Part shown: piece by piece, positions 1,836 through 62,853 of the stretch
How positions within the stretch are numbered: the stretch's first letter is position 1
How the letters are laid out: the number at the start of each line of letters is the position of its first letter
DNA from: an uncultured delta proteobacterium
Lineage (GTDB): Bacteria; Desulfobacterota; BSN033; UBA1163
Reading direction: 5' to 3'
Length of the DNA: 64,000 bases
Assembly (NCBI GenBank): GCA_963708295.1
Contig: CAVPSJ010000004.1
Coordinates: 64,001-128,000, forward strand
The notes under the pieces: model-generated
Told to the model about the DNA's origin: nothing
What the model saw: only the letters and a program-made list of their open reading frames with translations
The model's database searches: none
Made by a program: the position numbers and the translations under genes

Positions 1836-4251
1836 TTAGAAAAATAATGGAAATCTTTTCACTCGAACCCTTGAATCCCTGCCTACGGCAGGCGGGCCAG
1901 GCTCCTCGAACTCTTTTAATTCTTTTCTTAAGCGTTTCGCATTATACCCCAGGTGAATCAATATCTCTTCGGTTGCTTTCACGAGGAGATCCAGGTATTT
2001 TTTGACATCGTAGGTGTCGTCCGGCCCGACTAACGGAAATGGCCTGACCCGCTCCGCCTTATCTTTTGCTTCGGCATCTTTGATCACATACCTCACCTTT
2101 TCTCCGGGATGGATCAGAATTCCGACATCCTCGAGCTCCTGAGCGGCAAGAGCAGTCAGGCTATCTACCTTGTAGGCACTGGGCTCCTGAGAGATCCTCT
2201 TGCCGATGGCCAGATCCTCGTTTTTTGCCTGTCCGTCCTTTAACATCAGGCTATATTCGAGGAGAAGGTCTAAAATTTTTGGAATCTTCGCCCGATAATC
2301 ATCTCTATTCTTCGTCTCTGCCAGAATCTCAAGCATTCGAAGCTGAGCTTCCTGAATCAAAGGAGGCGTGTCACTTCGTCGAAATGCCAATCCTCGCGCC
2401 TTGATCTTTCCGTTTTGAAAGAGTCCGAAATAACGGTTGGCCACGGGACTCTCCGGATTCCCTTTGGAGGGAAGGAAGGCCATCCATCGATAAATTCCCT
2501 CCAGACTCATCGTGATCCCGGTGGCATCGCTGATCTTCTGACAGAGTTCAAGGACCTCTTCCTCTCTGAGCCCTTTCTTACGAATCCAGAGGGAATCGGT
2601 AATGGCATGGAGGAGTTCGAACCCTTCCTCCTCGCAGATCTCCTTGGCTTGAAGAAGGCTTTCCCTTCCAAAGGCAGTGACCGCCTCATGGGCTTCGATT
2701 CTCCCGAAGCGGGCATTCCGATAACCCAGATATCCAAAGCATGTCACGAGCATCCACTTGAGTGCTGTCTGCTTCCGGTTGTAAATTTCTCTTCTCTTTT
2801 CGCTAAGGGAATCGATTCCAAATCCCCCCAACCCCCTTTTGCTAAAGGGGGGAGGGGGGATTATTTCCACATTCCGCATTCCGCATTTCGCATTCTTCTT
2901 TGCCTGCTGCCTTCTGCTTTGTGCCTACTCCTTCTTTCGCCATTTTCTTCAACCAAGCCCTTCTTGCTAAGATGGGCCTGAGTGTCTTGGGAACAATCCC
3001 CTCTCTCTTCTCACAGATGGTATAACCCGTTTCCGGGACCCGATCGTTTTCACAACATCCACAAAGTACGGTCTCCGGAGAAATATTGTGAATCGCCATC
3101 ATGGTGGGATACATCGAGGCGAAGTCAATCTCCGCCACCTCTTCAAAGATCCCCAGCTTAGGTTGAAAGACAAGCCCCCCCTTGTCTCCAACCAGCAGAT
3201 CCCACGCCGTCTTGAATCTTTCCGGCTCTCCCTTTCTCCAGGGAATGAGAATGTCCTCCTGGAAGGCCCGGTCGAGTTGCATCGAGGTGATCGCTGTTCC
3301 CGGAGAGGTCCGGGCCATTCGTTGAACTGGAATTTTAGATAATCGCGCCAGCTCGATCACTCCTTCCATTCCCGATTCTCCATAGATGAAAGAGTTTCTA
3401 CGATCGATGTGCCACCTTCCAAGGAAGAGATGGGCAGGGGCCCGATAATAGGTCCGGCCATAGGAGAAATAAGAAAAACCTTTCGGATGAACCTGTCTTT
3501 TCACAGGATGAGGCTCCCGATCCCAGGGGATGGAGATTTTCCACCTTGTCTCTCCAGAAAAGAGAAGGGGCAAAAGAGAGGCATCCCCCTCATCGCTCAA
3601 GATCACATCCGGATCGAAATGTCTGAGAAATTTATCGACTTCTCCGACATCGATCGTCTCCGTCTCCACATGATACCCTTCACATTCCAGTAGGAGCCCT
3701 GAACCAGTACGGTTCAGGGTCTGTCCACCGGGAGGCATGGAGTTCCCAGAGATAGAAAGTTCCATGACCCGAAGGTCAAAAATATCTTCATTGTCTACCC
3801 AGACAGACTCGGATGGGTCAGGATGAATTTCGAAGACCCGATTTCCTTCAACCTCCACAAGACACCGCCCTGTTGGAAAAATTTCTCTCTCATAAAGATA
3901 CGTCTGGGGCAAAGGGATGTCACAATTGTAGAAGGTCATTTTCTCTTCCCAGGGAGGGAGAATTCTGGGAAGTTGGGCATAACGCTCCGAATCAACAACC
4001 TCGATCTCGATCACCTCCACTTCATCACCACTCCAGAACTCCTTCTTTCGGGTCCACTGGTAGCCTGCTGCCCGCTGGCCTCTCTGCAGAGAGTGGAAGA
4101 GATCGAGAAGATCACTTTTCTTTCCCTGTGCATAGAATCGGGGCCGGAAAGGATCTTCCAATCGACGAAGTCTCCCATCCTCTTCCTTGATCCACAGGAT
4201 CATCGAGGATTCCAAAGGATAAAGATCGAAGAGACGCCCGCTGATTTGCAT
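1836..4251 (-). CDS. polB: Family B DNA polymerase, PolB2-like (one gene, frameshifted near 2850-2880 inside a repeat insertion)
   Basis: Motif A DFASMYP, motif B KWMLVTCFGYLG, motif C HAITDSLW (YGDTDS variant typical of PolB2), RRSDTP; ORFs 2842-4503 and 1836-2879 join at a C-homopolymer tract; likely start MQISGRLFDLYP at 4251. Confidence 0.9.
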
Positions 4252-4339
4252 GGGTTTACCTAACTGCTCTGCATTTGCCGACGATGGTTCACCTGTCTGC
4301 TGCAGGCGGACACGAACGATAAGGTTACAATCATTACCC

Positions 4340-4500
4340 TCCCCCTGGAGGCTGGGTCGCAATATGAAAAGATGCTTTTCAAAAAAAGGGAGAGGCGGCG
4401 GGTTGAGAAGATGTAGAGAATTGTTCCATTGTGACACAGTCTCTTGACGGGGGAGGGTAAGGGTGGGGGTGCCCAAGAGGTATTTAGAGTCCCCTCCCCT
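4340..4500. repeat. Cluster of degenerate CCCTCCCCC...GGGGGAGGG palindromic repeats
   Basis: ccctccccctggagg, gggggagggtaagggtgggggtg and related hairpin halves between the small gene and the polB start. Confidence 0.5.
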
Positions 4501-4778
4501 CAAGAGAGAGTCTGCTCCTTTTGCTCCTCCAGGATTTTCAGTTTCGACCTCAACTCAACCAGGGCCTTTTCATGCTCGAGGAGAATAGAGACCAGTATCG
4601 TTTCAAAAGGCCAGGGCCTTGAAGCATAGACCCCGGCTTGTACATGAAGCCTTGCCGTTTCGAAGAGCCGGTCGAGGAACTGCTGATCTTCTTTCCTCAG
4701 ACCTCTCCGAAACTTCCTCCACTCCTGGGCTTCCTGCTCCAGAACCCTGCTAAAAGGAAGAACCGTCCTGCCCATCAC
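4500..4778 (-). CDS. Small helical PolB2-associated protein (arCOG07300-like)
   Basis: MGRTVLPF...EWRKFRRGLRKEDQQFLDRLF...ASRPWPFETILVSILLEHEK resembles the small protein encoded next to archaeal PolB2 genes. Confidence 0.75.
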   Translation of the reverse strand: MMGRTVLPFSRVLEQEAQEWRKFRRGLRKEDQQFLDRLFETARLHVQAGVYASRPWPFETILVSILLEHEKALVELRSKLKILEEQKEQTLS

Positions 4779-4937
4779 TCGTACTCCGTGTCCGTGCCTG
4801 CACGCCGAAGTGCAGCGTTTCGGGTCCGCTCACTCATCAATCTCAAAACCGCTGGACATTGCTCAAAGCGCATAGCGAAATTCATTCAGTGCTTATCTAA
4901 CGTGTTCGCCCCCAGTAAATGGGGTGCTACAGATTTT

Positions 4938-5657
4938 TCAATCTGCGATTTGCGATCTTGCAATCTGCAATTCTGCTACTTCTTTTATCAAAATCATTTT
5001 GGGCCCCTCCTCATCCAAATCAATCCTCCAAGCTTCGTTAGAAAACTGGAAGAGCCTCCGGGTGAGATAGACTCGTTTCGAATCCCTGAATCCCCCCATC
5101 CTCCGTTTAGAAAAAGGAGGAAAGAGAGAATTTTCAGAGAAGATAGAGGACTGGAATAGAAAAAAAGGAACTCCTCCCGAGGCTATTCCTTCTATCTTTC
5201 TCAGAGCTCTCTCAAAGAGAGGGCGAACCTCTCTCTCCGGCACATCTTCATCCAGAAAGGTGGTGAGCGGCCCCAGAAGGATCACCCATGGTTTTTGTAG
5301 GGGCGATTCATGAATCGCTCCTACCGTCCTGGCATGGATCAGGGAAACCAATCTTTCTCCCATCAGAGTGGCCATCTGGTAGCAGGTAAAGGCTCTTGCG
5401 ATCCGAATGCTTTTGAGAAGCTTCTCCGGAGAAATCAATGTCCTCTTTGCGAAAGACGAGACCGTATAGGCGTTAAAACGATTGGCTCCGTCTAATACGA
5501 TCACCTCGATCCCTTTCCCCGCCATCCATCCCGCTACATAAGAAGAAATCTCTCCCGCATCTTCCCCCCAAAAAAGAACTTTTCGGGGAGTAGAAGATTG
5601 AACTTGTGATAAGACTTCATCGAGGGTGAGGGATGGAGTTCGGAGTTTAGAATCCAT
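4938..5657 (-). CDS. Inactivated RadA/RecA-like ATPase-fold protein
   Basis: VIVLDGANRFNAY...IRIARAFTCYQ...TTFLDEDV RadA-like motifs with no intact Walker A; sits between lexA and polB. Confidence 0.75.
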   Translation of the reverse strand: MDSKLRTPSLTLDEVLSQVQSSTPRKVLFWGEDAGEISSYVAGWMAGKGIEVIVLDGANRFNAYTVSSFAKRTLISPEKLLKSIRIARAFTCYQMATLMGERLVSLIHARTVGAIHESPLQKPWVILLGPLTTFLDEDVPEREVRPLFERALRKIEGIASGGVPFFLFQSSIFSENSLFPPFSKRRMGGFRDSKRVYLTRRLFQFSNEAWRIDLDEEGPKMILIKEVAELQIARSQIAD

Positions 5658-5703
5658 ATCTTTCAGTCCGGAGTTCGGAGTTTCGCTTCCGCATCGTTCG
5701 GAG

Positions 5704-5883
5704 TTAGGTTTTTGGAGTATCCTTCTCTGATCCTTTTAGGGATTTCATCAATCCATTGACCATTTTCGATCGTTCGACACAGAATCTTCTTGATCGCTGT
5801 TCGAATCTATCGTCGATAACTCTTTGCCTACATGAAATTTCTGTAATAGAAACACATTCTCTTATAGATCTTCTTGCAGTCCA
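5704..5883 (-). pseudogene. C-terminal remnant of a four-helix-bundle protein (23S rRNA IVS protein-like) flanked by heptamer repeats
   Basis: Translation WTARRSIRECVSITEISCRQRVID...CVERSKMVNGLMKSLK resembles the family C-terminus; no start codon; ACTCCGA-type repeats on both sides in opposite orientation. Confidence 0.6.
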
Positions 5884-5900
5884 TCACTCCGAACTATTAT

Positions 5901-6569
5901 TTAAACTTTCCTGAACATCCCGATGACCTTTCCAAGAATTTGAACTTCCCCTGATCCCTCCTTAATCTGAATCGTCCCCCAGCGCTCATTGTCCGGCTTC
6001 AACTCGACCTCCCCTCCTTTTTTAAAAAACCGCTTCACCGTTGCCTCTTCTCCCATCAGGGTCACCACCACATCCCCATTTTCTGCCGAAGGTTGGACCC
6101 GAACGACGACATAATCATCGGGCAGAATATAAGGGGACATACTGTCACCTTTCACTTTCAGAAGGAAGATCTCTTTTCCTTTCACCCATTCCGTGGGAAG
6201 GGGAATCGTCCCTTCCACATGTTCTACGGCCAACGTGGGCTTTCCTGCGGCGACCCTGCCTAAGATTGGAATCTCCCGGCTCAACGCCCTCCCCTCTTTT
6301 TTTAGAGGTCCCCCATACGGTCCAGCCCCCAGGGATGAACCATGCGATTCATGCTCCTGAAAGATGAGTATCTCGAGGCCTCTGGACATCGAACCCCTCC
6401 GTTTCAAATAACCTTTTTTTTCCAATGCCTTGAGATGGTCGAAAACCGCTCTCGGATAAATATTGAAGTGCTCGCCGATCTCTCTTACAGAAGGGGGGTA
6501 GCCTCTTTCTTTGATAAATATCCTGACGAAGTCGAATATCTCTTTTTGCCGAGATGTCAGTTCCATCAT
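5901..6569 (-). CDS. lexA: SOS repressor LexA
   Basis: LTSRQKEIF...GYPPSVREIG wHTH, VAAG cleavage site, GDSM Ser and TVKR Lys catalytic dyad. Confidence 0.96.
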   Translation of the reverse strand: MMELTSRQKEIFDFVRIFIKERGYPPSVREIGEHFNIYPRAVFDHLKALEKKGYLKRRGSMSRGLEILIFQEHESHGSSLGAGPYGGPLKKEGRALSREIPILGRVAAGKPTLAVEHVEGTIPLPTEWVKGKEIFLLKVKGDSMSPYILPDDYVVVRVQPSAENGDVVVTLMGEEATVKRFFKKGGEVELKPDNERWGTIQIKEGSGEVQILGKVIGMFRKV

Positions 6570-6689
6570 TCCCCTCTTGAATCTAGGATTGTAAATTGGA
6601 TCAGTTCCCAATGTGGATCATTCGATTTGTGGATTAGTCCGAGACGGGCGCTTCGCCGATATTCTGAGTTTCGAATTTTTCGTGTTTTA

Positions 6690-6718
6690 ACGATACTATA
6701 CATTTGTTTAGCTGTCAA
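6690..6718 (-). promoter_or_regulatory. Sigma70 promoter of the lexA cassette with a candidate LexA operator in the spacer
   Basis: Minus strand TTGACA-17 nt-TATCGT; the spacer contains the near-palindrome CTAAAC-AAAT-GTATAG (6696-6711). Confidence 0.7.
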
Positions 6719-6832
6719 GGGAATTCTAGGAGGTCTCTGGAAGAAACATTGGTTTCTGGGAAACGGAGTGCTATTGTATTTCATTCAATCTATAAGTTAA
6801 AATTAACTATTTGACGAAAAAAGAATTCACTC

Positions 6833-7486
6833 ATGTGGGAGCGCTTTAAGGAAGATATTCGAACCATTAAAGAGAGAGATCCTGCGGCAAGAAACCTCGT
6901 AGAGATTTTTCTCTGCTACCCGGGTCTCCATGCAATCTGGCTCCACCGCGTCGCCCATTTTCTGTACGAAGAAGGCTGGTATACAACGGCTCGCCTCGTC
7001 TCCCACTTCAATCGAGGGTTTACAGGAATCGAGATTCATCCCGGGGCCAGGATCGGCAGACGGCTCTTTATCGACCACGGAATGGGGGTGGTCATCGGAG
7101 AGACAAGCGAGATCGGCGATGACTGCCTCATCTACAAAGGCGTGGTGCTGGGCGGTACCACCCTCGAAAGGAAGAAACGACATCCCACCCTGGGGAACCG
7201 TGTCATTATTGGTTCTAACTCCACTGTCTTAGGAGCCATCATCATTGGCGACGGTGCGAGAATTGGCTCCGGCTCCGTGGTGGTTAAACCCGTTCCAGCC
7301 GGTGCGACCGTCGTCGGTGTCCCGGGCCGCATTGTGGAATCCTTGACTCCGGAAAAAGACGAACTCGATTTCGAACATGGAAATCTCCCGGACCCGTTGT
7401 CTGATCTTATGAAGATGCTTCTTCAGCTTCACAGTAGATTAGAAGAGAGAGTCAAGCGATTGGAGAACCAGGAGAACGAACATTAA
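6833..7486 (+). CDS. cysE: Serine O-acetyltransferase
   Basis: RDPAA, YPGLHA, GIEIHPGA, FIDHGMGVVIGET, KRHPTLG, HGNLPDP motifs. Confidence 0.96.
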   Translation: MWERFKEDIRTIKERDPAARNLVEIFLCYPGLHAIWLHRVAHFLYEEGWYTTARLVSHFNRGFTGIEIHPGARIGRRLFIDHGMGVVIGETSEIGDDCLIYKGVVLGGTTLERKKRHPTLGNRVIIGSNSTVLGAIIIGDGARIGSGSVVVKPVPAGATVVGVPGRIVESLTPEKDELDFEHGNLPDPLSDLMKMLLQLHSRLEERVKRLENQENEH

Positions 7487-7561
7487 ACAAATCAAGGTCA
7501 AGGTGGAAGCTTGGGTTAAGATTTGAAGTATTCTCCGATTCAACTTTGTTAGGCATGAAAC

Positions 7562-7987
7562 ATGGCAAAATATCCAAAAGTTTTGATGGAACATTTTCAA
7601 AATCCAAGAAATGTGGGTGAGATTTCTGATCCGGACGGTATCGGCACTGTCGGAAATGCCTCTTGCGGGGACATCATGCAGATGTTCATCAAAGTGAATG
7701 GCGACAAGATTATCGAGGCAAAGTTCAAGACTTTCGGCTGCGGGGCTGCCATTGCCACCAGTTCTATTCTCACAGAGCGGATCAAGGGGGCCACGCTGGA
7801 CGAGGCCTTGACGATCTCGGAGGAGACTTCTACGGAGGTCCTCTCCCAATTGCCTAAAGAAAAAGTTCCCTGCTTCACCCTGGCCACGGATGCTTTAAAA
7901 TTGGCGATCGAGGAATGCCGATGCAAGCGGACCGGGATTCATGAAAAGGGTGGGTTTGATATGAAGGAGATGGAGAAGGAATCATAA
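7562..7987 (+). CDS. iscU: Fe-S cluster scaffold IscU/NifU-N family
   Basis: HFQNPRNVG, GNASCGD, FKTFGCGAAIA, KVPC. Confidence 0.9.
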   Translation: MAKYPKVLMEHFQNPRNVGEISDPDGIGTVGNASCGDIMQMFIKVNGDKIIEAKFKTFGCGAAIATSSILTERIKGATLDEALTISEETSTEVLSQLPKEKVPCFTLATDALKLAIEECRCKRTGIHEKGGFDMKEMEKES

Positions 7988-7997
7988 GGATGATTTC

Positions 7998-8906
7998 ATG
8001 ATAAAAGAAGAAAAGGTCGTTTTTCTCAAGAATCCAAACCATGTCCTGGAACAAGTGATTAAGAACTTCATCCATGAAGCGCAATCGAATCAACGAACTC
8101 AGCTGGACGACGGAACTTACTGGGAAGAACCCTTGGTCGGATTTGCTTCAGGCATTGCACCCCTCTTCTTCGAATACAAAACACTCATCGGCCCCTTTCA
8201 CCTGACCCCTAGGGAGATTATTTCAGCAGCCCTGAAGGAGAGGGGGAGAAGTCTTCTCTTTACTGAGATTGAGCAGATTAGTGTTATTTCATGGGCTCTC
8301 CCCGCCTCAGAAGATATTCGCAAGAGCAACCGTCAGGAAAAACAATTTCCGTCCAAACTCTGGGCCTACGGCAGGACGTTTGGCGAAGCCTGTAATATCG
8401 CTCTCAGGAACCAGGTTGTAACCTTTCTGGAGGACTTAGGACATCCTGCCGTGGCACCCACGCTTTCCCCGGCGTTTCAGCATATCAGGGATGAGAAGGT
8501 GGGCTGGGCTTCTCCCTGGTCTGAACGCCACATCGCCTATGCCTGCGGTCTCGGAACCTTCAGCCTCAATGATGGTCTCATCACTCCTAAAGGAATGGCT
8601 GTTCGATTCGGCAGCGTCGTCACTCTGCTGAAGTTGACACCAAGCGAGATGAAATATCGTCACCATAGAGAAAATTGTCTTCAGTTTCGAAACGAAAAAT
8701 GTGGAAAGTGCATTCCGAGATGTCCGGCCGGCGCGATATCGGAAAAGGGACATGATAAGGATAAGTGTAAGGAATATGTCGATTCGGAGGTTTTGCAAAA
8801 GAAACGGATCGAATATGGGTTACAAAACCCTCCCCCTTCCTGTGGCCTCTGTCAAACCGACGTCCCCTGTGAATTTCAGATCCCAAGACCAAACCTGATC
8901 GCCTAG
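7998..8906 (+). CDS. QueG-like (epoxyqueuosine reductase family) 4Fe-4S protein
   Basis: WSERHIAYACGLGTF, CGKCIPRCP and CGLCQTDVPC motifs. Confidence 0.75.
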   Translation: MIKEEKVVFLKNPNHVLEQVIKNFIHEAQSNQRTQLDDGTYWEEPLVGFASGIAPLFFEYKTLIGPFHLTPREIISAALKERGRSLLFTEIEQISVISWALPASEDIRKSNRQEKQFPSKLWAYGRTFGEACNIALRNQVVTFLEDLGHPAVAPTLSPAFQHIRDEKVGWASPWSERHIAYACGLGTFSLNDGLITPKGMAVRFGSVVTLLKLTPSEMKYRHHRENCLQFRNEKCGKCIPRCPAGAISEKGHDKDKCKEYVDSEVLQKKRIEYGLQNPPPSCGLCQTDVPCEFQIPRPNLIA

Positions 8907-33463: not shown

Positions 33464-34648
33464 TTAAAAGAGGAAACCATAAATAAGGATGGAAAGCAAT
33501 CCACCTGCCAGAAGGATGTAAGGAAGGCTGATCTTTTTATAAATGGCAAAGAAAGCCGCTGCAGCCATGAGAATCCTTGGAATATCTACAAGGGAGGTCC
33601 TTCCAAAATTATAAAGGACCAGGGCCAACATTCCGATAAATGACCCAAGGACACCCTGCTCCATCATCCGGACCTTTTCGACTCCCCGCAATCGATCGTG
33701 ATAAGGAATCAGAAGGACCAGGATGAAGAAAGAAGGGAAAAAGACTCCAAGCGTGGCCATGAATGCACCCAACAGATTGGCTACCTTGTAACCCACGAAA
33801 GTGGCTGTAATCAGAATGGGACCGGGAGTCACCTGACCCAGTGCAATCCCGTCCAAAAATTCTTTTGTGCTGAGCCACTGAAATCGGTCTACCATCTCAT
33901 ACTGGATCAAGAGGGATGGCGGTGAACCCGCCGCCGAAGGCCAGAGCTCCGATCTTGGAAAGATTGAGGGAGAGGCTCGTAATCCTGGGATCCACGAGAT
34001 AAGAGAGCACCAATGCCAGGCAAATAAAGGCCGCCAGGAAGAGCAACAATAAGATATTCCTTTTCTTCACCTCGTGAGGAACGCCTCCGGAGCGCTTCCA
34101 GCGGCCGCAGCTTTGGCTTGGAGGTATCTTAGGACGTAAAAGAAGACCGGCAAGCGGCAGCGAAGACAAAAATCAGAACAAAGTTCCACTGGAAAAAGAA
34201 GGCGAAGAAGGATAAAACTGCGATGAGAATCACCTTCCAGTCTTTGAGAATGGATCTGCCGAAGGTGATGCAGGCATTGAGGATGATGGCCACCACAATT
34301 GCCCCCAATCCCTTAAAAAGAGCCTGGATAAACCAGAGGCTATGAAATCTGAAATAGATGGCCGAAAGAATCAAGGAGGGCGATAAATGCCGGGAGAACA
34401 AAAGCCACTGCCGCTGTAAGGGCTCCCCAGATTCCCCTGACCCGATACCCGATGTAAGTAACGATCTGGACCATGGTAGCCCCCGGGATCAACTGGCAGA
34501 GGGCCACCCCTCGCATGAACTCTCCCTCTTTCACCCAGCCATATCGATTTACAGCCGTCTCCTTGATCTGACCGATCATCGCCGGGCCGCCATAGGCCGT
34601 GGCCCCAAGTTTGAAAACTCTTGTGAATAGAAGGCTGAGTGGAATCAT
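33464..34648 (-). CDS. chrA: Chromate efflux transporter (two-domain), frameshifted
   Basis: GATAYGGPA, QLIPGA, AFGGG, GQVTPGP motifs. Confidence 0.88.
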
Positions 34649-37108: not shown

Positions 37109-38459
37109 CTATAGTTGCCTTAGTATCTCGGCAGGCTTCATTCTGCTTGTCCGTTTCCCCATGACATAACTCGCCATGCCACCGGCAACAAGGGAGAGTG
37201 CCAGAGAAATTGCTGTTAGCCCGGCGGAGATGCTAACTGGAAGCCGGACGGTTTGGGCAGCGGCTGCCGTATCTTTGGCGAAAGCAGGCAAAAGATTCAG
37301 CTCCCAGGAGGTTGATACGGGAATGGAGAGGAAACCCAGAAGATAAGAGAAGAAGTATCCCATCAGGATTCCCAAGACACCTCCGAGAAGAGATTGTAAA
37401 AAGACTTCGCCCATTAACTGTTTTTGAACATCTCTTTCGGTCCAGCCGACCGCCTTCAGAATGCCGATCTCTCGGGATCGCTCAACAAGATTGGAAAGCA
37501 TGGCCTTGACGATCAGAAAAACAGCGCCTCCAAGGGCGATGATGGAAACGATAAAAGAGAACTGGTCAGAAATCTTCGAGACCCCTCCCATCAGTTCAAG
37601 AGATGAATCGGAACTCGCGACAGAAACCCCATTGAGCTGCCTGGCAATGCTTGTCTTTACCTGGCTGAGAAGAGATGGGTTCTTCAGGCGAAGATAGACA
37701 ATATTTACCCCGTTAGAAATAATGCCCGCTGCTCTACGGTCCCGCCTATGGCGGGATTAGATTTTGGAATAATTCGGGCGGGATTGAGTGCCCCGTCTGG
37801 AATTTCTAACGGGGTGAACACCGCCCGATTCTCCGCCAAGCAAGCTCTGGGCATCTTGAAGGGGCAGGTATATATTCGCTGAGGCGATCTGGGATCCTTC
37901 TTTGATCTCCAGGAGTCCCACGACGCTGAAGGGACGGCCATTGATCTCCACTGTGTCTCCCATTTTTTTGTGCTGGAATTTTGCATAATGTTTTTCGAGA
38001 ACGACTTCCCCTTCTTTTTGGGGAAAACGCCCTTCTTTGAGCCACTCCTTGACCTTGACCGGCCCCAGACTCGGTTGCGTAAGATCGACTCCCATGATCG
38101 TCCTGAAACCGCCTTTATCAAACTCCCAGAGGAGGAGCGAAGAAGCCATCGAATCGACACCTTCAATCGTTTTGAGTTTTTCGAGATCCTCGGAGGGAAG
38201 AAGCTGATTCGAAAAAGGCAGGCGTATCCCGCGCATGGATGCGGGCGGCTGGCCTGAATCAACAGCCCGCTTTTCCGGTCGCTGCACAACGACGTCTGCC
38301 CCAAGGTTCTTGAAAGGCAGGCTCACCGCTTTCTGATAAGCCGTTGAAACGGCATTGATGGAAACAAAAAGGGCAATTCCGATCCCGATGCCCAGGATAT
38401 TGACCAGGGTACGGTTATGGTGATGGCGAAGTTCTTTCAACACGTAGTTGATAGTTCAT
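37109..38459 (-). CDS. ABC transporter permease (FtsX/MacB family) interrupted by a MITE
   Basis: RTLVNILGIGIG, GADVVVQ, ERSREIGILKAVGW; split at 37708-37819. Confidence 0.85.
37708..37814. mobile_element. MITE-like element, copy 3, inside the permease gene
   Basis: ACCCCGTTAGAAAT...ATTTCTAACGGGGT terminal inverted repeats. Confidence 0.85.
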
Positions 38460-44898: not shown

Positions 44899-46141
44899 TT
44901 ATACATGTCTCAGGGCCTTAATCGGTTCCATTCTCGATGCCTTGAAGGCCGGCTGTAAACTGGCAACCACCGAGATGAAGATGACAATGAGAGAGATCAT
45001 CAGAACATCGCACGGAGCGATGGTGGCCGAAAGGACAAGCCCTGTTTCCCTCCCGAAATCAAAGGTGATCCCAACACGATTGAGGATGAGAATGATAATC
45101 AGCCCTATCAGGTCACCCGCCAGCGCTCCCATCGTTCCGAGAAATAATCCTTCCAGGACAAACATCGATAGAATTTTTCCCGGCAGCGTGCCGATGGCCG
45201 CGATCGTACCAATCTCCCTTATCCTCTCATAGACCGCCATGATCATCACATTCATGATACTGACCAGGACCACAGCGATCAGCATGAGCTTGATAAAGAA
45301 GGCCATGACATCGATCATTCTGGCAATATTGTAGAAAGGAGAGAGTTTTTCCCAGGTATGAACCTCGTAAATGGGTTTGCCCTGTTTGTTGACCTCCCCG
45401 GAAAGGAGTCTTTCAAGTTTGTCACTGAAGGCATGGAGCTGTCCGAAATTCTTCAACCGGATGGCCACCTCGCTCACTTCCATCTCCTCCATTCTCAAGA
45501 CTTCCATTGCATCTTCAATATGGATGTAACCATCTCTGCCGCCAGGCCCTGTGACGCTTTCGAGAACACCCGCAACTTTGAACTGTTTTCCATTGACAGA
45601 ACCATCCTTGTTCGTGGCGATAATGACTACCGTATCGCCTACATTCACTTTCATGCTTTTCGACATGAGGTCAGGAATCCAGATCTCTCCTTTTTCGAGA
45701 GTCTTTTTTGCGCCATTTGTAACCCTCGATGGAAGGAGGGGAACCGTCTTTAAATTCCCGGTCCGGATAGACCCCATTCAGTCTTATGTTGGTCGTCTCC
45801 ACAAAGGTGCTGAACATCCCCCCGAATTTTATCCGGGGAGAGAAGGCTTCAACTTCAGGCTGCTGTTTGAGAATCCCTTCCAATTTCTGATAAGCCTGCA
45901 GTTTGAGGTTGAGATTGAGGGGAAGGTTATCGATGGAGGCCAAATAACCCTTCCTGTGAACCTCCAGGTGCCCCAACATCGAATCGGTCATCTGTCCGAT
46001 CATCATGTTCTTGAAAGAACCGCTTATCGAAATGAAGAGAAGAACGAAAACAACCCCGATCGTCACAAGAGAGGCTGTAAGCAGCGTTCTTCTCTTGTAT
46101 CTTAGAAGATTTCTGATGGCGATTTTCAATAGATTACGCAT
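44899..46141 (-). CDS. ABC transporter permease (LolE/FtsX family), frameshifted
   Basis: IAIRNLLRYKRRTLLT, ERIREIGTIAAIG, MEPIKALR. Confidence 0.88.
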
Positions 46142-46873
46142 TTTTCTTTCCTCCTTTGACCTGTTTTCCAACCAGTTCTCCATCCTCCAGAGTGTAGATA
46201 ATCTCCGCTTCACCCACGATCTTCTGGTCATGGGTGGAGAAGATGAAGGTTGTCTGAAACTCATCCCTCATCTTTTTCATCGACTCAAGGACCAGAAATG
46301 CCGTCTTATGATCGAGATTTGCGGTCGGCTCATCGGCCAGGACCAGTTTCGGATTTGTGACCAGGGCTCTCGCAATGGCCACCCTCTGCTTCTGCCCGCC
46401 GGAGATCTGGTCGGGGTATTTGTCCTTTTGATCAATCATCCCAACCGCCTCCAGCAGTGGTCAGAATTCTCTTTTTCCTTTCTCCTCCGGGAACATTCTG
46501 GACCATGAGAAGAGGGTATTCGATATTTTCATAAACCGTAAGAACAGGGATGAGGTTGAAGTCCTGAAAGATGAACCCGATGATTGTTTCCCCGGAACGA
46601 AGCGCTCTGTTTCCGGTCAAGATGCAACACATCGGTGCCCGCAACCTCCAGTTTGCCTTCCGTGGGCTTATCGAGACACCCGATCAAATTGAGAAGCGTT
46701 GTCTTGCCGCTTCCCGAGGGTCCGACAAAGGAGACAAAGGAGGCAGGTTCGATTTCAAAACTCACCTCATTCAATGCCCTGATCGCAATCTCCCCTGCCG
46801 TGTAGTCTTTGCTTACCTTTGTTGCCACGACACTGTAAATCTTGGTGATATTCTCTGCCACTACAAGTCCCAT
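46134..46873 (-). CDS. ABC transporter ATP-binding protein, frameshifted
   Basis: [26 protein letters not shown]. Confidence 0.9.
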
Positions 46874-54049: not shown

Positions 54050-55778
54050 ATGAAAGGATTTTTTAATCAGCTTCTCCGAATCAATCTCTCTCATCAGAAA
54101 TCCACGGTCGAACCCATTCCCGAATCCGTCCTTCGATCCTATCTGGGTGGAAAGGGATTAGGTTCTTACCTTCTTCTTAAAGAAAATCCACCCCATATCG
54201 ATCCCTTTTCACCTGAAAATCGCCTCATCTTCACATTGGGCCCCTTGGCGGATACTCCCTTTTATGGCTCCAGTCGTTACGCCGTCTTCACCAAATCGCC
54301 TCAGACCGGAATCTATTCCGAATCCTATTCCGGAGGAAAGATTACCCTCTCCCTCAGCCGAACGGGTTATGATGCCATCATCATTGAAGGAAAATCAAAA
54401 CATCCCATCTTTCTCGAGATCAGCGATCAAGAAGTCGTTTTCCATTCTGCATCAAGCCTCTGGGGAAAAGAGACCTATGAGGCAGAAGAGGCCATTCTCA
54501 AAAAGGTTGGCAAAGATTCCCGCGCTTTGGTCATCGGTCCGGCGGGAGAAAATTTGGTCAAATTTGCAGTGATCGAGAGTGAGCACGGGCGTTCTCTTGG
54601 AAGGGCCGGAATCGGAGCGGTGATGGGATCGAAGAAGTTGAAGGGGATTGTCTTCCACGGGAAGAAGCGCCGGGAGATTGCCGATCCCTCTTCTTTGAAA
54701 AGGTTGTCTCAGGAATTTAAAGAGCGAGTCAAGGGCAATGAGATCATTTACATGTATAAAAAATATGGAACCCCCATGCTGGTTTCCATCATGAACACCA
54801 TCGGCGCCTTTCCGACCCAATATTGGTCCAAAGGGACATTGGAGGGGTGGGAAGGGATCAGTGCGGAGAGCCTGATGGAACGTTGCCAGGTGAGTTCCAT
54901 CGCCTGCCCTTCTTGTTTCATGGCCTGTGGGAAAATCTCTGAGGTCAAACAGGGGAGGCACCGAGGCCTTCGCATCATGGGACCGGAATACGAAACGATT
55001 TATGCCTTCGGGGGACTCTGTATGGTCAATTCCATTGAGGAAATCATCTATCTCAACGATCTCTGTGATCGCCTGGGAATCGATACGATTACCGCGGGAA
55101 ACTTAGCCGCCTTTGCCATCGAGGCCTCAAAAAGAAGAAGATTAAAGACAACCTCGACTATGGAGAGGTGGATGGGATTGCTGAGATCTTAACGAAGATC
55201 GCTTACAGAAAGGGAGTGGGCCGGATCTTATCGGAAGGGGTTCGCCATGCCGCAAAGGTCTGGGGGATGGAGGAGGAGGCAATCCATGTGAAGGGCCTGG
55301 AGCCTGCGGGCTTTGATCCCAGGGTATTGAAGGGAATGGGGCTTGCTTATGCCACATCGGATCGGGGCGCCTGCCATCTCAGGGCCACCTTTTATAAATC
55401 TGAACTCTCCGGTCAGATTCACCCCAACCAGATTAAAGGAAAGGCCAAGCTTTTTGTCGATTATGAGGACAAGATGACCCTTTTCGACGCCCTGATCCTC
55501 TGCCGGTTTTATCGGGATCTCATCACCTGGAAGGATCTTCAGGAGATCATCAAATCCAGTTGTGGTTTCTCATCAGATAGAAAGATCTCAAGACCATGGC
55601 CTCCGGAATTATCAATCTCGCCAGAGCTTTCAATCAACAAGAAGGGGTGACAAAAAAAGAGGACAAACTGCCCCGCCGATTCTTTCGAGAGGTCCTCCAG
55701 GACACGGGGAAAACGATCCAGCCCCAGGATCTGAAGGTGATGCTAAAGGAGTATTATCAATTAAGGGGTTGGAAGTAG
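54050..55778 (+). CDS. aor: Aldehyde:ferredoxin oxidoreductase family (W-dependent), frameshifted
   Basis: YLGGKGLG, KSPQTG, GRAGIGAVMGSKKLK, CPSCFMAC, GPEYET, DRGACH. Confidence 0.92.
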
Positions 55779-60724: not shown

Positions 60725-62853
60725 TCAATAAGCTGAAAGCAGGATCCGAACATCCACGGCCTTCGCACCCCGATCATCCACCACAAGGGGATTGATCTCG
60801 ATATCGGAAATACTCGGGTTCCGCTCAAGGCGGGACTGAAGGATGGCACCCACTTTCAAAATCGTATTCACTAGGCTCTCAATGTCTTTCTTTTTCTCAC
60901 CTCTCACACCCAGGAGGATGGGATAGGATTTGATCTCTTTGATCATGGTGATGACTTCTCTGCGGTCCAGAGGGAACCCCCTGAAAGAGACATCCTTCAT
61001 CACCTCCACGTAGATGCCCCCCAGTCCGCACATCACAATGGGACCGAAGGAAGGATCGTTCCTGGCGCCGACAATCAACTCGACGCCCGGATTTGACCAT
61101 CTCGGAAACCTCAACCCCTTCCAGCCTGGCACGGGGACTGGCTTTTCTGCAATTATGGATGATGGCTTCGTAGGCTTCGATCACCTCTTTCCTGTCCGTG
61201 AGATCCAGGGCAACTCCGCCGACGTCGCTTTTGTGAAGAATGTCCTTGGAAACGATTTTCATCACCACCGGATACCCGATCTTCTCCGCCGCCGACACCG
61301 CCTCTTCAAGATGATGGGCGATGAAACTGGAGGGGACGGGAATGCCCGCGGCCTTCATGACCTTCTGCCCTTCGTCGGCGAGGAGGAAGTGCCGCTTCTC
61401 TTCCTTCACTTTCTGGATCACCCTCTCGATCTCAGCGGTGTCGAGTAAGACCGGATCGATCCTGACGGGCGGATCCTTGAGGTAGCGGGTAATAGGTATA
61501 CATCGCTCCCATGCAGGAAACCGCTTCATAAGGATCGGTGAAGACAGGCACATCCCGTTTCTTCAGAGACTCGACACAGTTTTCTGTTTTCTCTCCTCCC
61601 ACCAGGCAGAAGACCGTCGGTTTCTTCGCCTCTCTAAAATTTCTATAGTTTTCTTCGATGATGGGGGATAGATTCTCGATGTCGAAAACCGCCGTTTCGC
61701 AATACATGGAAATCACCGCATGAATGTCCGGATCTTCAAAAGAGGCCTTAAAGGCACTCTGATAAAGTGAAGAGGTGGCTTCCCCGGTCAGGTCGATCGG
61801 ATTCTTCGTCGACCCAAAATAAGGCATCATCCCTGAGAAGGTCTCTTTCAGACGCTCATAGTCATCATAGAGTTTCACCCCATACTTTTCGCAGGCATCG
61901 GTCGCCAGGACACCGATCCCTCCTCCGTTCGTAACGATCACGGCGTTTTCTTCCTGAGGAAGGGGGCTATTCGCAAAGAACTTGCACCATTCCAGGGCCT
62001 CGTTAAGGCTTTCGGCCCTGATCGCATGGGACTGCCTCATCAGATAATCGAAGATCTCATCCGAGCCTGCCAGGGCACCGGTATGAGAGGCCGCGGCCAT
62101 GGCTCCTTTCTTGGATCGGCCTGCTTTCAAGACGACGACGGGTTTCTGCCTTGGCCGTCTTCTGAAGAACACTGGACAAACCGCTCGCCCGCTTTCAGCC
62201 CTTCGATGTAAATCAGGATCACCTGGGTCGCCTCATGATGAAGAAAATACTCCAGAAGGTCTGTCTCATTGATATCGGATTTATTCCCTACCGAGACAAT
62301 CGCCGAGAGACCGATGTTTTCAACGGCGGTCTTACCGATCATGGCGATGCCCAGGGCTCCGCTCTGCGTGATGATCGCGATATTTCCCGGCTTGATGTTC
62401 TTGGGGCCAAAGGTTGCATTGAGGGAACTGGAGGCCGAAAAGATCCCAAAGATGTTCGGGCCGAGGACGCGCATGCCGTGCTCCCGGGCACAGGCCGACG
62501 ATCTTTTTCTCTTCCTCCCGGTTTCCGATCTCAGAGAATCCTGAAGAGATGATCGGAGCGAACTTCACTCCCTTTTCGGCACAGCCTTTCACCACATCGA
62601 AGACGAATTTCGCAGGGACGACGATGACCCCGATATCCACCTCGTCTTCGACCTCCCGGACGTCTTTGTATCCCCGAAGTCCGAGGATCTCCTCCCCCCT
62701 GGAGTTGACAGGATAGATTCTTCCCGGATACCCTCCCGAAACGATATTGTCCAGGATCTTATACCCGATCTTGCGGGTATCCCGCGATGCTCCGATGACC
62801 GCAATGCTTTTTGGTTTAAAAAGAAATCGGATATCGGGTTCATCCGTTCTCAT
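60725..62853 (-). CDS. ADP-forming acetate/acyl-CoA ligase (fused alpha-beta), frameshifted
   Basis: PKSIAVIGAS, GPN, QSGA, SHTGALAG, HKSDVGGV, EINP. Confidence 0.9.

Follow-up and report, generated by a model that had tools for sequence, protein, structure and literature searches.

Positions 1836-6720 of the 64,000-nucleotide (nt) stretch analyzed here (contig CAVPSJ010000004.1 of an uncultured delta-proteobacterium; its full length is referred to as the window) carry four co-oriented genes on the minus strand, lexA, iRadA, PPB2, and polB2. We read this region as the operon (lexA-iRadA-PPB2-polB2) of a bacterial PolB2 mutasome, carried by a Syntrophaceae-like bacterium of the Thermodesulfobacteriota, and put the probability of this reading at roughly three in four. 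The initial annotation of positions 1836-6718 listed a co-oriented lexA, a RadA-like gene lacking Walker A, a small helical protein, and a B-family DNA polymerase (PolB), all of which are present on the minus strand. The idea is not new, the four-gene locus having already been reported (PMC4104785, PMC11791011). The cassette is a further member of an already described bacterial system and adds no new kind of system. What is new is the promoter and dyad located upstream of lexA across the lineage, the placement of the PolB2 FKTA motif on iRadA by modeling, and the heptamer arrays and palindromes within the cassette.

The statement that PolB2 genes cluster with arCOG07300 and an inactivated RadA, and that bacterial versions with lexA exist, agrees with the literature [Makarova 2014 (PMC4104785); Timinskas 2025 (PMC11791011)]. 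In the former, lexA belongs to the same predicted operon in some bacteria, and the example of lexA-radA-arCOG07300-polB2 is Leptospirillum ferriphilum LFML04_0990-0993. The latter names the PolB2 mutasome, models a PolB2-iRadA-(PPB2)3 pentamer and compares it with Pol V; it also proposes a single transfer from archaea to bacteria, and describes bacteria as having only the iRadA-PPB2-PolB2 order, with lexA enriched nearby. A 2026 survey of bacterial polymerases lists the group as G2/PolB2. The parts of the cassette, with lengths in amino acids (aa) and the polymerase given as two open reading frames (ORFs), are as follows.

6690-6720, minus strand: promoter-like site (TTGACA, 17 nt, TATCGT) with an imperfect dyad, a candidate LexA operator
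5901-6569, minus strand: lexA, 222 aa from the ATG at 6569 (TIGR00498, PF01726, PF00717)
4938-5657, minus strand: iRadA, 239 aa; RadA/Rad51 fold, no Walker A lysine, no N-terminal domain
4500-4775, minus strand: PPB2 (arCOG07300-type), 91 aa; MGRT N-terminal arm, three helices
2842-4251, minus strand: N-terminal part of polB2, 469 aa from the ATG at 4251; NF004416 positions 9-387; ends at TAG 2842-2844
1836-2879, minus strand: C-terminal part of polB2, with motif B KWMLVTCFGYLGY, motif C HAITDS, and the thumb; NF004416 positions 385-657; ORF from the ATG at 2879

The cassette was compared with 24 related genome loci (L001-L024; about 17 kb per genome). The order iRadA-PPB2-polB2 is kept in all 24 as far as each extends, and lexA stands upstream of these genes in 18 of the 18 loci that reach that far. 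All but one of the loci (23/24) are labeled Thermodesulfobacteriota, Syntrophaceae, or delta-proteobacterium. The remaining one, L023, is a 4138-nt contig titled Terriglobia bacterium, the polB2 of which is 86-93% identical to that of the window; mis-binning of this short contig or a recent transfer would explain it.

Many database matches are 80-90% identical to the cassette, which suggested a mobile cassette or recent horizontal spread. This possibility was rejected in view of the lineage labels, the syntenic flanks, and the equally conserved neighboring genes, whose identities (76-96%) are like those of the cassette itself. Since the locus is chromosomal and syntenic, with neighbors conserved to the same degree, the many close matches reflect a well-sampled lineage rather than a mobile element. 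A casposon-like or otherwise integrated element with a PolB, for which a variable context, terminal repeats, and an integrase would be expected, was likewise rejected; the genomic neighbors are conserved in 11 loci.

The polymerase and its predicted partners

The initial annotation took the PolB as a single gene; it is read here as two ORFs in different frames, with the C-terminal part in the +1 frame relative to the N-terminal part. The N-terminal part holds a presumably degenerate exonuclease region, the FKTA and DK motifs, and motif A (DFASMYPT), and all PolB2 homologs start with M-x-I-x-G-R-LFDLYPL. Both of the motifs previously pointed out, HAITDS and KWMLVTCFG, lie in ORF 1836-2879.

The best model for the polymerase is NF004416, an archaeal-type PolB, with which the two halves score 173 and 237 bits and three intact relatives reach 415-434 bits. 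The NCBIfam models for Pol II give 25-33 bits on the halves in the window and 31-62 bits on the intact relatives, against cut-offs of 570-1435. Matches in the PDB rank in the same order, with Pyrococcus, Thermococcus, and 5mdn PolBs at 1e-21 to 1e-22 compared with 4e-6 for E. coli Pol II (3k57). An E. coli-type Pol II is ruled out by this ranking together with Pol II model scores far under their cut-offs, and the distinction drawn earlier between an archaeal-type polymerase and Pol II is upheld. Judged by these scores, the polymerase is an archaeal-type B-family enzyme and probably a PolB2. Motif C, HAITDS, aligns to YGDTDS of 5mdn and the relatives read ITD or MTD at this place; hence, the first Asp of the DxD motif is substituted and the second is kept. 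The N-terminal 285 residues align weakly to Pyrococcus PolB (9.9 bits), and no DxE is seen at the FDIET-type motif I in this unreliable alignment.

The product of the second gene, iRadA, had no match in Pfam, NCBIfam, or PADLOC. However, a profile built from 18 iRadA homologs matches archaeal RadA/Rad51 (best E 3.4e-4), with 22 of the 23 listed chains being RadA/Rad51. The AlphaFold model [predicted local distance difference test (pLDDT) 80, predicted template modeling score (pTM) 0.79] matches Rad51, RadA, DMC1, and Rad51 paralogs at template modeling (TM) scores of about 0.55-0.64 and E of about 1e-8. In place of the Walker A sequence GxxxxGK[ST], iRadA reads GEDAGEIS, without a lysine, and its 239 aa compare with approximately 310-350 for the full-length RadA/Rad51 chains listed. 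Profile, model, and motif thus agree with the earlier description of a RadA-like gene lacking Walker A.

PPB2 had been described as a 92-aa helical protein. Its helical nature is borne out by the structural model, with an N-terminal arm and helices at residues 8-23, 28-46, and 57-90 (pLDDT 82.5), while a length of 91 aa is more likely. The start at ATG 4775 is preferred because it gives the N-terminus MGRTVLPFS, and MGRTV.PFS is invariant in 23 of 23 sequences. The protein is strongly conserved (mean column identity 87%; relatives 82-95% identical). It has 2047 homologs, and all 120 of those listed carry the precomputed Pfam domain PF26485. Searches of NCBIfam, PADLOC, and a Pfam copy without PF26485 returned no family match; this Pfam family seems to be newer than the copy used.

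Multimer modeling of the three proteins had been suggested as a check on the cassette, and the pair formed by the N-terminal part of PolB2 and iRadA gave an interface. The interaction prediction score from aligned errors (ipSAE) is 0.74 (runs 0.72, 0.74, and 0.75), against 0.01 for the highest-scoring of three controls. Among solved complexes, 58 of 80 attain the mark applied to this score, and among mismatched pairs, 2 of 110 do so. No fewer than 81% of contacts are shared between runs, with a partner pLDDT of 74 or more. In the model, PolB2 residues 339-353 (RKGEPERFKTAWDLL) lie on residues 78-98 of iRadA. Within this segment F346, K347, T348, A349, and W350 are invariant in 23 sequences, as are D356-K357 just downstream. 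A contact between PolB2 and iRadA through a RadA-oligomerization-like (beta-alpha) motif just before D(K/R) was modeled by Timinskas 2025 (PMC11791011), and the interface predicted here is that same arrangement. The structural matches of the iRadA model include complexes with FHTA peptides. The FKTA sequence resembles the FxxA motif of Rad51 partners.

The variable, repeat-encoded tails of iRadA and PolB2 (…LQIARSQIAD and …KRFPLFF, respectively) were inspected by eye for a QLxLF-type beta-clamp-binding motif, which some of the described systems carry at the C-terminus of iRadA or PolB2, and no clear one was seen.

lexA, its promoter, and the proposed mechanism

LexA is identified by TIGR00498 (204 bits against a cut-off of 110.95) and by the Pfam domains LexA_DNA_bind (PF01726) and Peptidase_S24 (PF00717). 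The VAAG sequence with the Ala-Gly site, the serine in GDSM, and the lysine in VKR are all readable, as expected for a member of the LexA family. The automatic ORF call (5901-6611) starts at a TTG at 6611; the alignment of MELTSRQ across the loci places the start at ATG 6569 instead, giving the N-terminus MMELTSRQ.

The best promoter-like site of the region (10/12) lies upstream of lexA at 6690-6720, and the end of the initially annotated region, 6718, is the first base of its TTGACA hexamer. The spacer between the -35 and -10 hexamers contains an imperfect dyad, CTAAAC-N4-GTATAG, at a position where a repressor would block RNA polymerase, which makes it a candidate for a putative LexA operator. 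The element is shared across the lineage. A 27-nt sequence, TCTTGACA[A/G]CTAAACAAATGTATAGTAT, is common to the 14 upstream sequences that show it whole, A/G being its only variation, and its layout among the relatives is TTGACA, a 17-nt spacer, and TATnnn. The 16-mer at its core, CTAAACAAATGTATAG, occurs exactly once per locus, upstream of lexA and on the same strand, in 16 of the 16 loci that cover the region. In the window this 16-mer occurs once (6696-6711), and an 18-mer of the element is matched with one mismatch. The distance between the element and the lexA start ranges from about 25 to about 440 nt among the loci.

In compact relatives the genes of the cassette overlap or nearly touch. 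lexA and iRadA overlap (-7 nt in L011, -4 nt in L015), as do iRadA and PPB2 (-26 nt in L011 and L019), and the gap between PPB2 and polB2 is 4-6 nt in L007 and L011. The terminator scan detected no terminator-like hairpin on the coding strand between the cassette genes, and no internal promoter was found within the cassette. A single LexA-autoregulated operon fits these data because the promoter and dyad are conserved upstream of lexA and the genes overlap in compact relatives; the arrangement supports, and does not prove, one transcript of all four genes. Downstream of the polB2 stop, at 1787-1804 on the minus strand, there is a perfect 7-bp G/C hairpin (GTCCCGC TTTG GCGGGAC) without a T-run, which is absent from the list of the terminator scan. 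Second in the ranking of promoter-like sites is TTGACA, 16 nt, TATTTT at 1755-1728, whose first base is also that of the listed TcmP ORF; a transcript from it would serve only a start codon further inside that ORF, unless the match is due to chance.

In the mechanism that we propose, one sigma-70-type promoter upstream of lexA, with the dyad between its hexamers, would drive all four genes and would be repressed by LexA. Following DNA damage, RecA-stimulated self-cleavage of LexA would allow the operon to be transcribed. The PolB2 produced would be exonuclease-dead and, like the active Dpo2 of Sulfolobus, would have Ile where DxD has its first Asp. It would join one iRadA through the FKTA motif, mimicking RadA oligomerization, together with a PPB2 trimer, the MGRT arm of which would reach the active site. 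The complex would then extend primer ends past lesions, resulting in damage-induced mutagenesis. The polymerase activity (that of archaeal Dpo2 only) and the pentamer model are taken from the literature; LexA binding, co-transcription, and translesion synthesis in bacteria are what we infer.

Frame break, inserts, and heptamer arrays

The two parts of polB2 meet in an insert between RRAWLKK and RKQTALKW, which by alignment corresponds to the finger-tip loop (chain residues ~470-476) of the Thermococcus and Pyrococcus PolBs.

2778-2943, minus strand: hypervariable finger-tip insert with the frame break, 166 nt; heptamer arrays and a G/C palindrome
2824-2859, unstranded: G/C-rich palindrome (on the minus strand C6-T-C6 TTTAGCAAAA G5-TT-G6), with a 13-nt C arm

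The insert is 42-207 nt long in the 21 relatives in which it was measured (three further loci were not measurable), the shortest (L005 and L010) being MAKEGDPEKREIYN. The 13-nt C arm of the palindrome creates the +1 change of frame; 12 or 15 nt would preserve it, and in L003 the same palindrome element is in frame (…CGNNPPSPPFSKGGLGGFGIDS…). One open frame runs across the insert in 20 of the 23 readable relatives, L021 being left out of the count since its insert is a run of N. Breaks occur in L006 and L015 (A-runs toward the 3′ end of the insert) and in L008 (C5G5), in each case at a place different from that in the window. That the cassette is functional in this lineage is suggested by the insert, the length of which is kept as a multiple of three without stops in those 20 relatives despite full turnover of its sequence, as well as by the identity of the polB2 C-terminal part and of PPB2 and by synteny. 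The identity of the C-terminal part is 79-93% in the right frame compared with 43-77% in the wrong frame.

At least five other genes in the window are split into adjacent or overlapping ORFs.

34129-34648 (gene span 33464-34648): split chromate transporter gene
54050-55650: split AFOR gene
44899-46264 and 37109-38443: two split MacB/FtsX genes
61432-62853: split acetyl-CoA-synthetase-like gene

The contig is frameshift-rich, and truncated ABC_tran, CCP_MauG, and MoaE genes are also found between 32261 and 62853. Among the relatives, the iRadA of L009 (1479-2142) has matches in two frames (query residues 9-194 and 166-227), so that this gene, too, has a broken frame.

Three observations suggest an assembly error or a very recent mutation: 20 of 23 relatives are intact, the break falls in a C-run of a hypervariable insert, and at least five other genes in the window are split. 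We consider it probable that the break in polB2 is a one-base homopolymer error of the assembly. The broken relatives all come from one series of records, titled "MFD…bin… contig_N" (3 of its 7 records are broken, but none of the 16 others; p ~0.02 in a hand-calculated Fisher's exact test). These records may be long-read assemblies. Alternatively, the break is real, and polB2 is a recently inactivated pseudogene in a cassette that is decaying here and functional in relatives. The break is, after all, present in the sequence as given, and slippage occurs naturally at homopolymer tracts within a hairpin; the two-frame iRadA of L009 also points in this direction, and genome decay, instead of errors, might explain the many split genes in the window. 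The rest of polB2, however, has no other stop or shift and is 67-93% identical to its relatives, and the lexA, iRadA, and PPB2 ORFs are intact in the window. Considering also the unbroken relatives and the single record series behind the broken ones, a pseudogene is unlikely.

Two further explanations would leave the polymerase functional with the break in place. In one, a +1 ribosomal frameshift bypasses the break: the N-terminal frame ends with ...CCC CUU UAG C, and a Leu tRNA would slip from CUU to UUU at the hungry stop, yielding the full-length enzyme. A comparable +1 frameshift site is that of RF2 (prfB). The required CTT TAG C is present at 2842-2847 with the C-terminal frame at +1. However, only C-runs, and no Shine-Dalgarno-like stimulator, lie upstream, and any palindrome ending in ...CCCTTTAGC would yield CTT TAG upon a one-base gain; moreover, the site is not conserved, 20 relatives needing no shift and the three other broken ones breaking elsewhere. 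In the other, the polymerase is naturally split into two subunits, each translated by itself and joining the other at the finger tip. Split archaeal PolBs exist, and a break in a surface loop between two finger helices, an ATG at 2879 for the C-terminal ORF, and a few database proteins that end at that place (P0021, 444 aa; P0103, 441 aa) would suit such an enzyme. No ribosome-binding site is visible before ATG 2879, however, and the split is absent from 20 of 23 relatives, with break points that differ among the broken records. As neither feature is conserved, both explanations are extremely improbable. Returning to the favored assembly error, the two-ORF polymerase of the window should not be taken as a split or dead enzyme without the reads.

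Heptamer arrays or G/C palindromes occur in the lexA 5′ untranslated region, in two of the three spacers, in two iRadA loops and the iRadA tail, and at the finger tip of PolB2. In addition to the finger-tip insert, the following were delimited.

5658-5900, minus strand: lexA-iRadA spacer, 243 nt, with opposite-sense heptamer arrays at its ends (AGTTCGG... / ...CTCCGAA)
5297-5324, unstranded: 28-nt palindrome in iRadA, in frame (…GAIHESPLQ…); pLDDT <50 at residues 115-119
5076-5129, minus strand: second in-frame iRadA insert, ENSLFPPFSKRRMGGFRD; pLDDT <50 at residues 174-191
4935-4976, minus strand: heptamer array encoding the C-terminal tail of iRadA (…AELQIARSQIAD) and running over the stop codon; period 7 in Tandem Repeats Finder (TRF), 5.1-5.3 copies

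In the 24 loci and the whole window taken together, TRF reports 74 period-7 rows in ~109 kb of cassette compared with 14 in ~261 kb of flanks. Other periods show no such excess (cassette/flank rows: period 6, 8/9; period 8, 10/18; period 9, 11/18; period 10, 4/9; period 12, 4/11). A stricter periodicity filter leaves 10 segments inside the cassettes and 1 outside. Identity at a lag of 7 nt is 0.36 in the lexA-iRadA spacers (0.362 pooled over 16 spacers), 0.35 in the iRadA-PPB2 spacers, and 0.44 in the finger-tip insert. The values are lower elsewhere: 0.24 in polB2 coding sequence, 0.26 in 48 further intergenic segments of the window (8.8 kb), and 0.27 in the PPB2-polB2 spacers. The heptamer units differ between species, and within a spacer the array on the left is often the reverse complement of that on the right.

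Both iRadA inserts form low-confidence loops in the AlphaFold model and are predicted to be disordered. The 28-nt palindrome insert is absent from many homologs, and L017 and L024 are the only loci with similar copies, likewise in iRadA. The second insert (…FPPFSKRRMGGF…) is variable or absent in homologs, with a gap in 7 of 18 (alignment columns ~250-275), and the C-terminal tails of iRadA vary as well. These sites, together with the finger tip and the tails, provide a map of places in the proteins where large insertions are tolerated.

In the lexA-iRadA spacer an end-to-end stem is present in both the minimum-free-energy and the centroid structures (z -2.08, but -1.29 in a second run), while the other three spacers of the window fold no better than shuffles. 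A structured RNA in the window spacers was considered and not retained, since this spacer alone folds better than shuffles, and only weakly so. Among the relatives, 19 of 51 spacers fold at z below -2, which fits their inverted repeats. A dispersed family of repetitive extragenic palindromic (REP) sequences or miniature inverted-repeat transposable elements (MITE) likewise found no support as the source of the palindromes, no other copy being present in the window or the flanks of the 24 loci (about 17 kb per genome). The iRadA and finger-tip palindromes have no dispersed copy in the ~370 kb examined, so a mobile repeat family is not shown, and the two occur only at homologous cassette sites, in three genomes each.

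The excess of heptamers and palindromes could reflect neutral accumulation in a rarely expressed operon, template switching driven by hairpins, or a regulatory or contingency role. The non-neutral versions can be phrased more specifically. The cassette could be a turnover hotspot on which the mutasome or the SOS state leaves a cis footprint when the operon is heavily induced, by template switching or by slippage at hairpins; or the 7-nt units and homopolymer runs of the coding insert could form a contingency switch that toggles the error-prone polymerase, the broken frame of the window being the OFF state. Such non-neutral readings we regard as very improbable. The strong, cassette-specific excess of heptamers merits a look across other PolB2 operons.

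The minus-strand genes directly downstream of polB2 (2-1755) encode TcmP (TIGR04474, 170 bits) and a DUF5131 protein, which correspond to the two components of the PADLOC candidate defense systems PDC-M30 and PDC-M41 (A, 6.6e-33; B, 7.1e-88). This pair also follows the cassette in L001, L010, L016, and L024, and DUF5131 alone does so in L003. Divergent from lexA, on the plus strand at 6833-8906, are cysE (TIGR01172, 240 bits), a NifU-like gene, and a 4Fe-4S protein gene. The divergent cysE-nifU arrangement is kept in 11 loci, 10 of which also have the Fer4 gene; in L009, truncated at this point, only cysE is seen.

Weight of the evidence and comparison with known systems

Several points weigh against the reading as a functional PolB2 mutasome operon. 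The polB2 ORF is broken in the sole sequence available for this organism, which touches on inactivity of the polymerase, named by the initial annotation as an outcome that would refute its proposal. The other split genes of the window are not all broken at runs of at least five identical bases; homopolymer error behind every split gene is thus only partly borne out, and a simple model of this kind does not cover each of them. With 415-434 bits, the intact relatives fall short of the 516-bit curated cut-off of NF004416, and the assignment to the PolB2 clade is a probable one, made from profile and PDB scores. Solved Rad51/RadA oligomer and FxxA-peptide structures exist, and the predicted complex may therefore partly be a memory of them. 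On the regulatory side, the dyad is imperfect (6/7), and no second copy of the 18-mer or dyad element occurs elsewhere in the 64-kb window or in the loci; with a single copy per locus and none elsewhere in the window, a LexA regulon cannot be shown. To our knowledge the dyad resembles no LexA box, and the literature search found no description of a LexA box for this lineage. The window spacers are long (243, 162, and 248 nt), which leaves room for internal promoters that escape detection. Finally, the literature search found no experimental test of a bacterial PolB2, in line with the earlier statement that the bacterial system has not been characterized experimentally.

With no bacterial experiment found, the complex might not be a translesion polymerase at all and might have another damage- or replication-linked role, for example, in recombination-dependent or alternative initiation of replication. 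Such a role was considered for archaeal operons linked to orc genes [Makarova 2014 (PMC4104785)]. The archaeal Dpo2 is active and exonuclease-free and extends mismatched and lesion-opposed termini, and it copies undamaged DNA with high fidelity (PMC8764526), the last of these properties being compatible with such a role. However, the cassette is linked to lexA and not to replication genes, and the genetic and biochemical evidence from archaea favors translesion synthesis and mutagenesis (PMC7390963, PMC8764526). We consider a role outside translesion synthesis improbable. Taken as a translesion system, the cassette offers two handles: the 27-nt promoter/dyad as a candidate LexA operator, and the invariant FKTA...DK segment that is predicted to hold iRadA.

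The cassette has the same genes in the same order as the described PolB2 mutasome, with lexA adjacent (PMC4104785, PMC11791011). The likeness extends to the MGRT arm, the DK motif, an iRadA without the Walker A lysine, Ile in place of the first Asp of DxD, and the predicted contact between PolB2 and iRadA. In contrast to the described system, polB2 is frame-broken here, a 42-207-nt insert occupies the finger tip, heptamers and palindromes fill the spacers, the iRadA loops, and the tail, and a promoter/dyad is defined. None of these differences is described in sections 3.1-3.3 or the Discussion of PMC11791011, and a term search of that paper gave "repeat" 0 times and "insertion" once, in another sense. 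Dpo2 of Sulfolobus islandicus belongs to the same B-family group, likewise has Ile at the first DxD position and iRadA and PPB2 as partners, and lacks proofreading, as the PolB2 of the cassette presumably does; it differs in being archaeal and in being regulated in an Orc1/Cdc6-type manner rather than by LexA (PMC11791011).

The palindromes themselves are reminiscent of the Rickettsia palindromic elements and of other small in-frame repeats, in that palindromes are translated in surface loops of conserved proteins, here iRadA and PolB2. They differ from the Rickettsia elements in having no dispersed copies.

E. coli Pol II is also an SOS-inducible bacterial B-family polymerase, but it acts as a single subunit with active proofreading. 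No umuDC, imuABC, dinB, Y-family, or DnaE2 gene was detected among the 95 ORFs scanned in the 64-kb window. The parallel drawn in the initial annotation with lexA-imuA-imuB-dnaE2 is a reasonable analogy, although the cassette is a member of neither ImuABC nor Pol V. Like both of these systems (the latter encoded by umuDC), it is linked to lexA and would be a multi-subunit, error-prone SOS polymerase whose accessory protein is of a RecA-family or RecA-like type. It differs from them in that the catalytic subunit is of the B family, not of the C or Y family, and in that the accessory proteins are unrelated, namely, a PPB2 trimer and a RadA-type protein that is not of the RecA/ImuA type. If the reading proposed here is true, bacterial PolB2 mutasomes would constitute a third SOS mutagenesis machine beside Pol V and ImuABC, one that was acquired from archaea.

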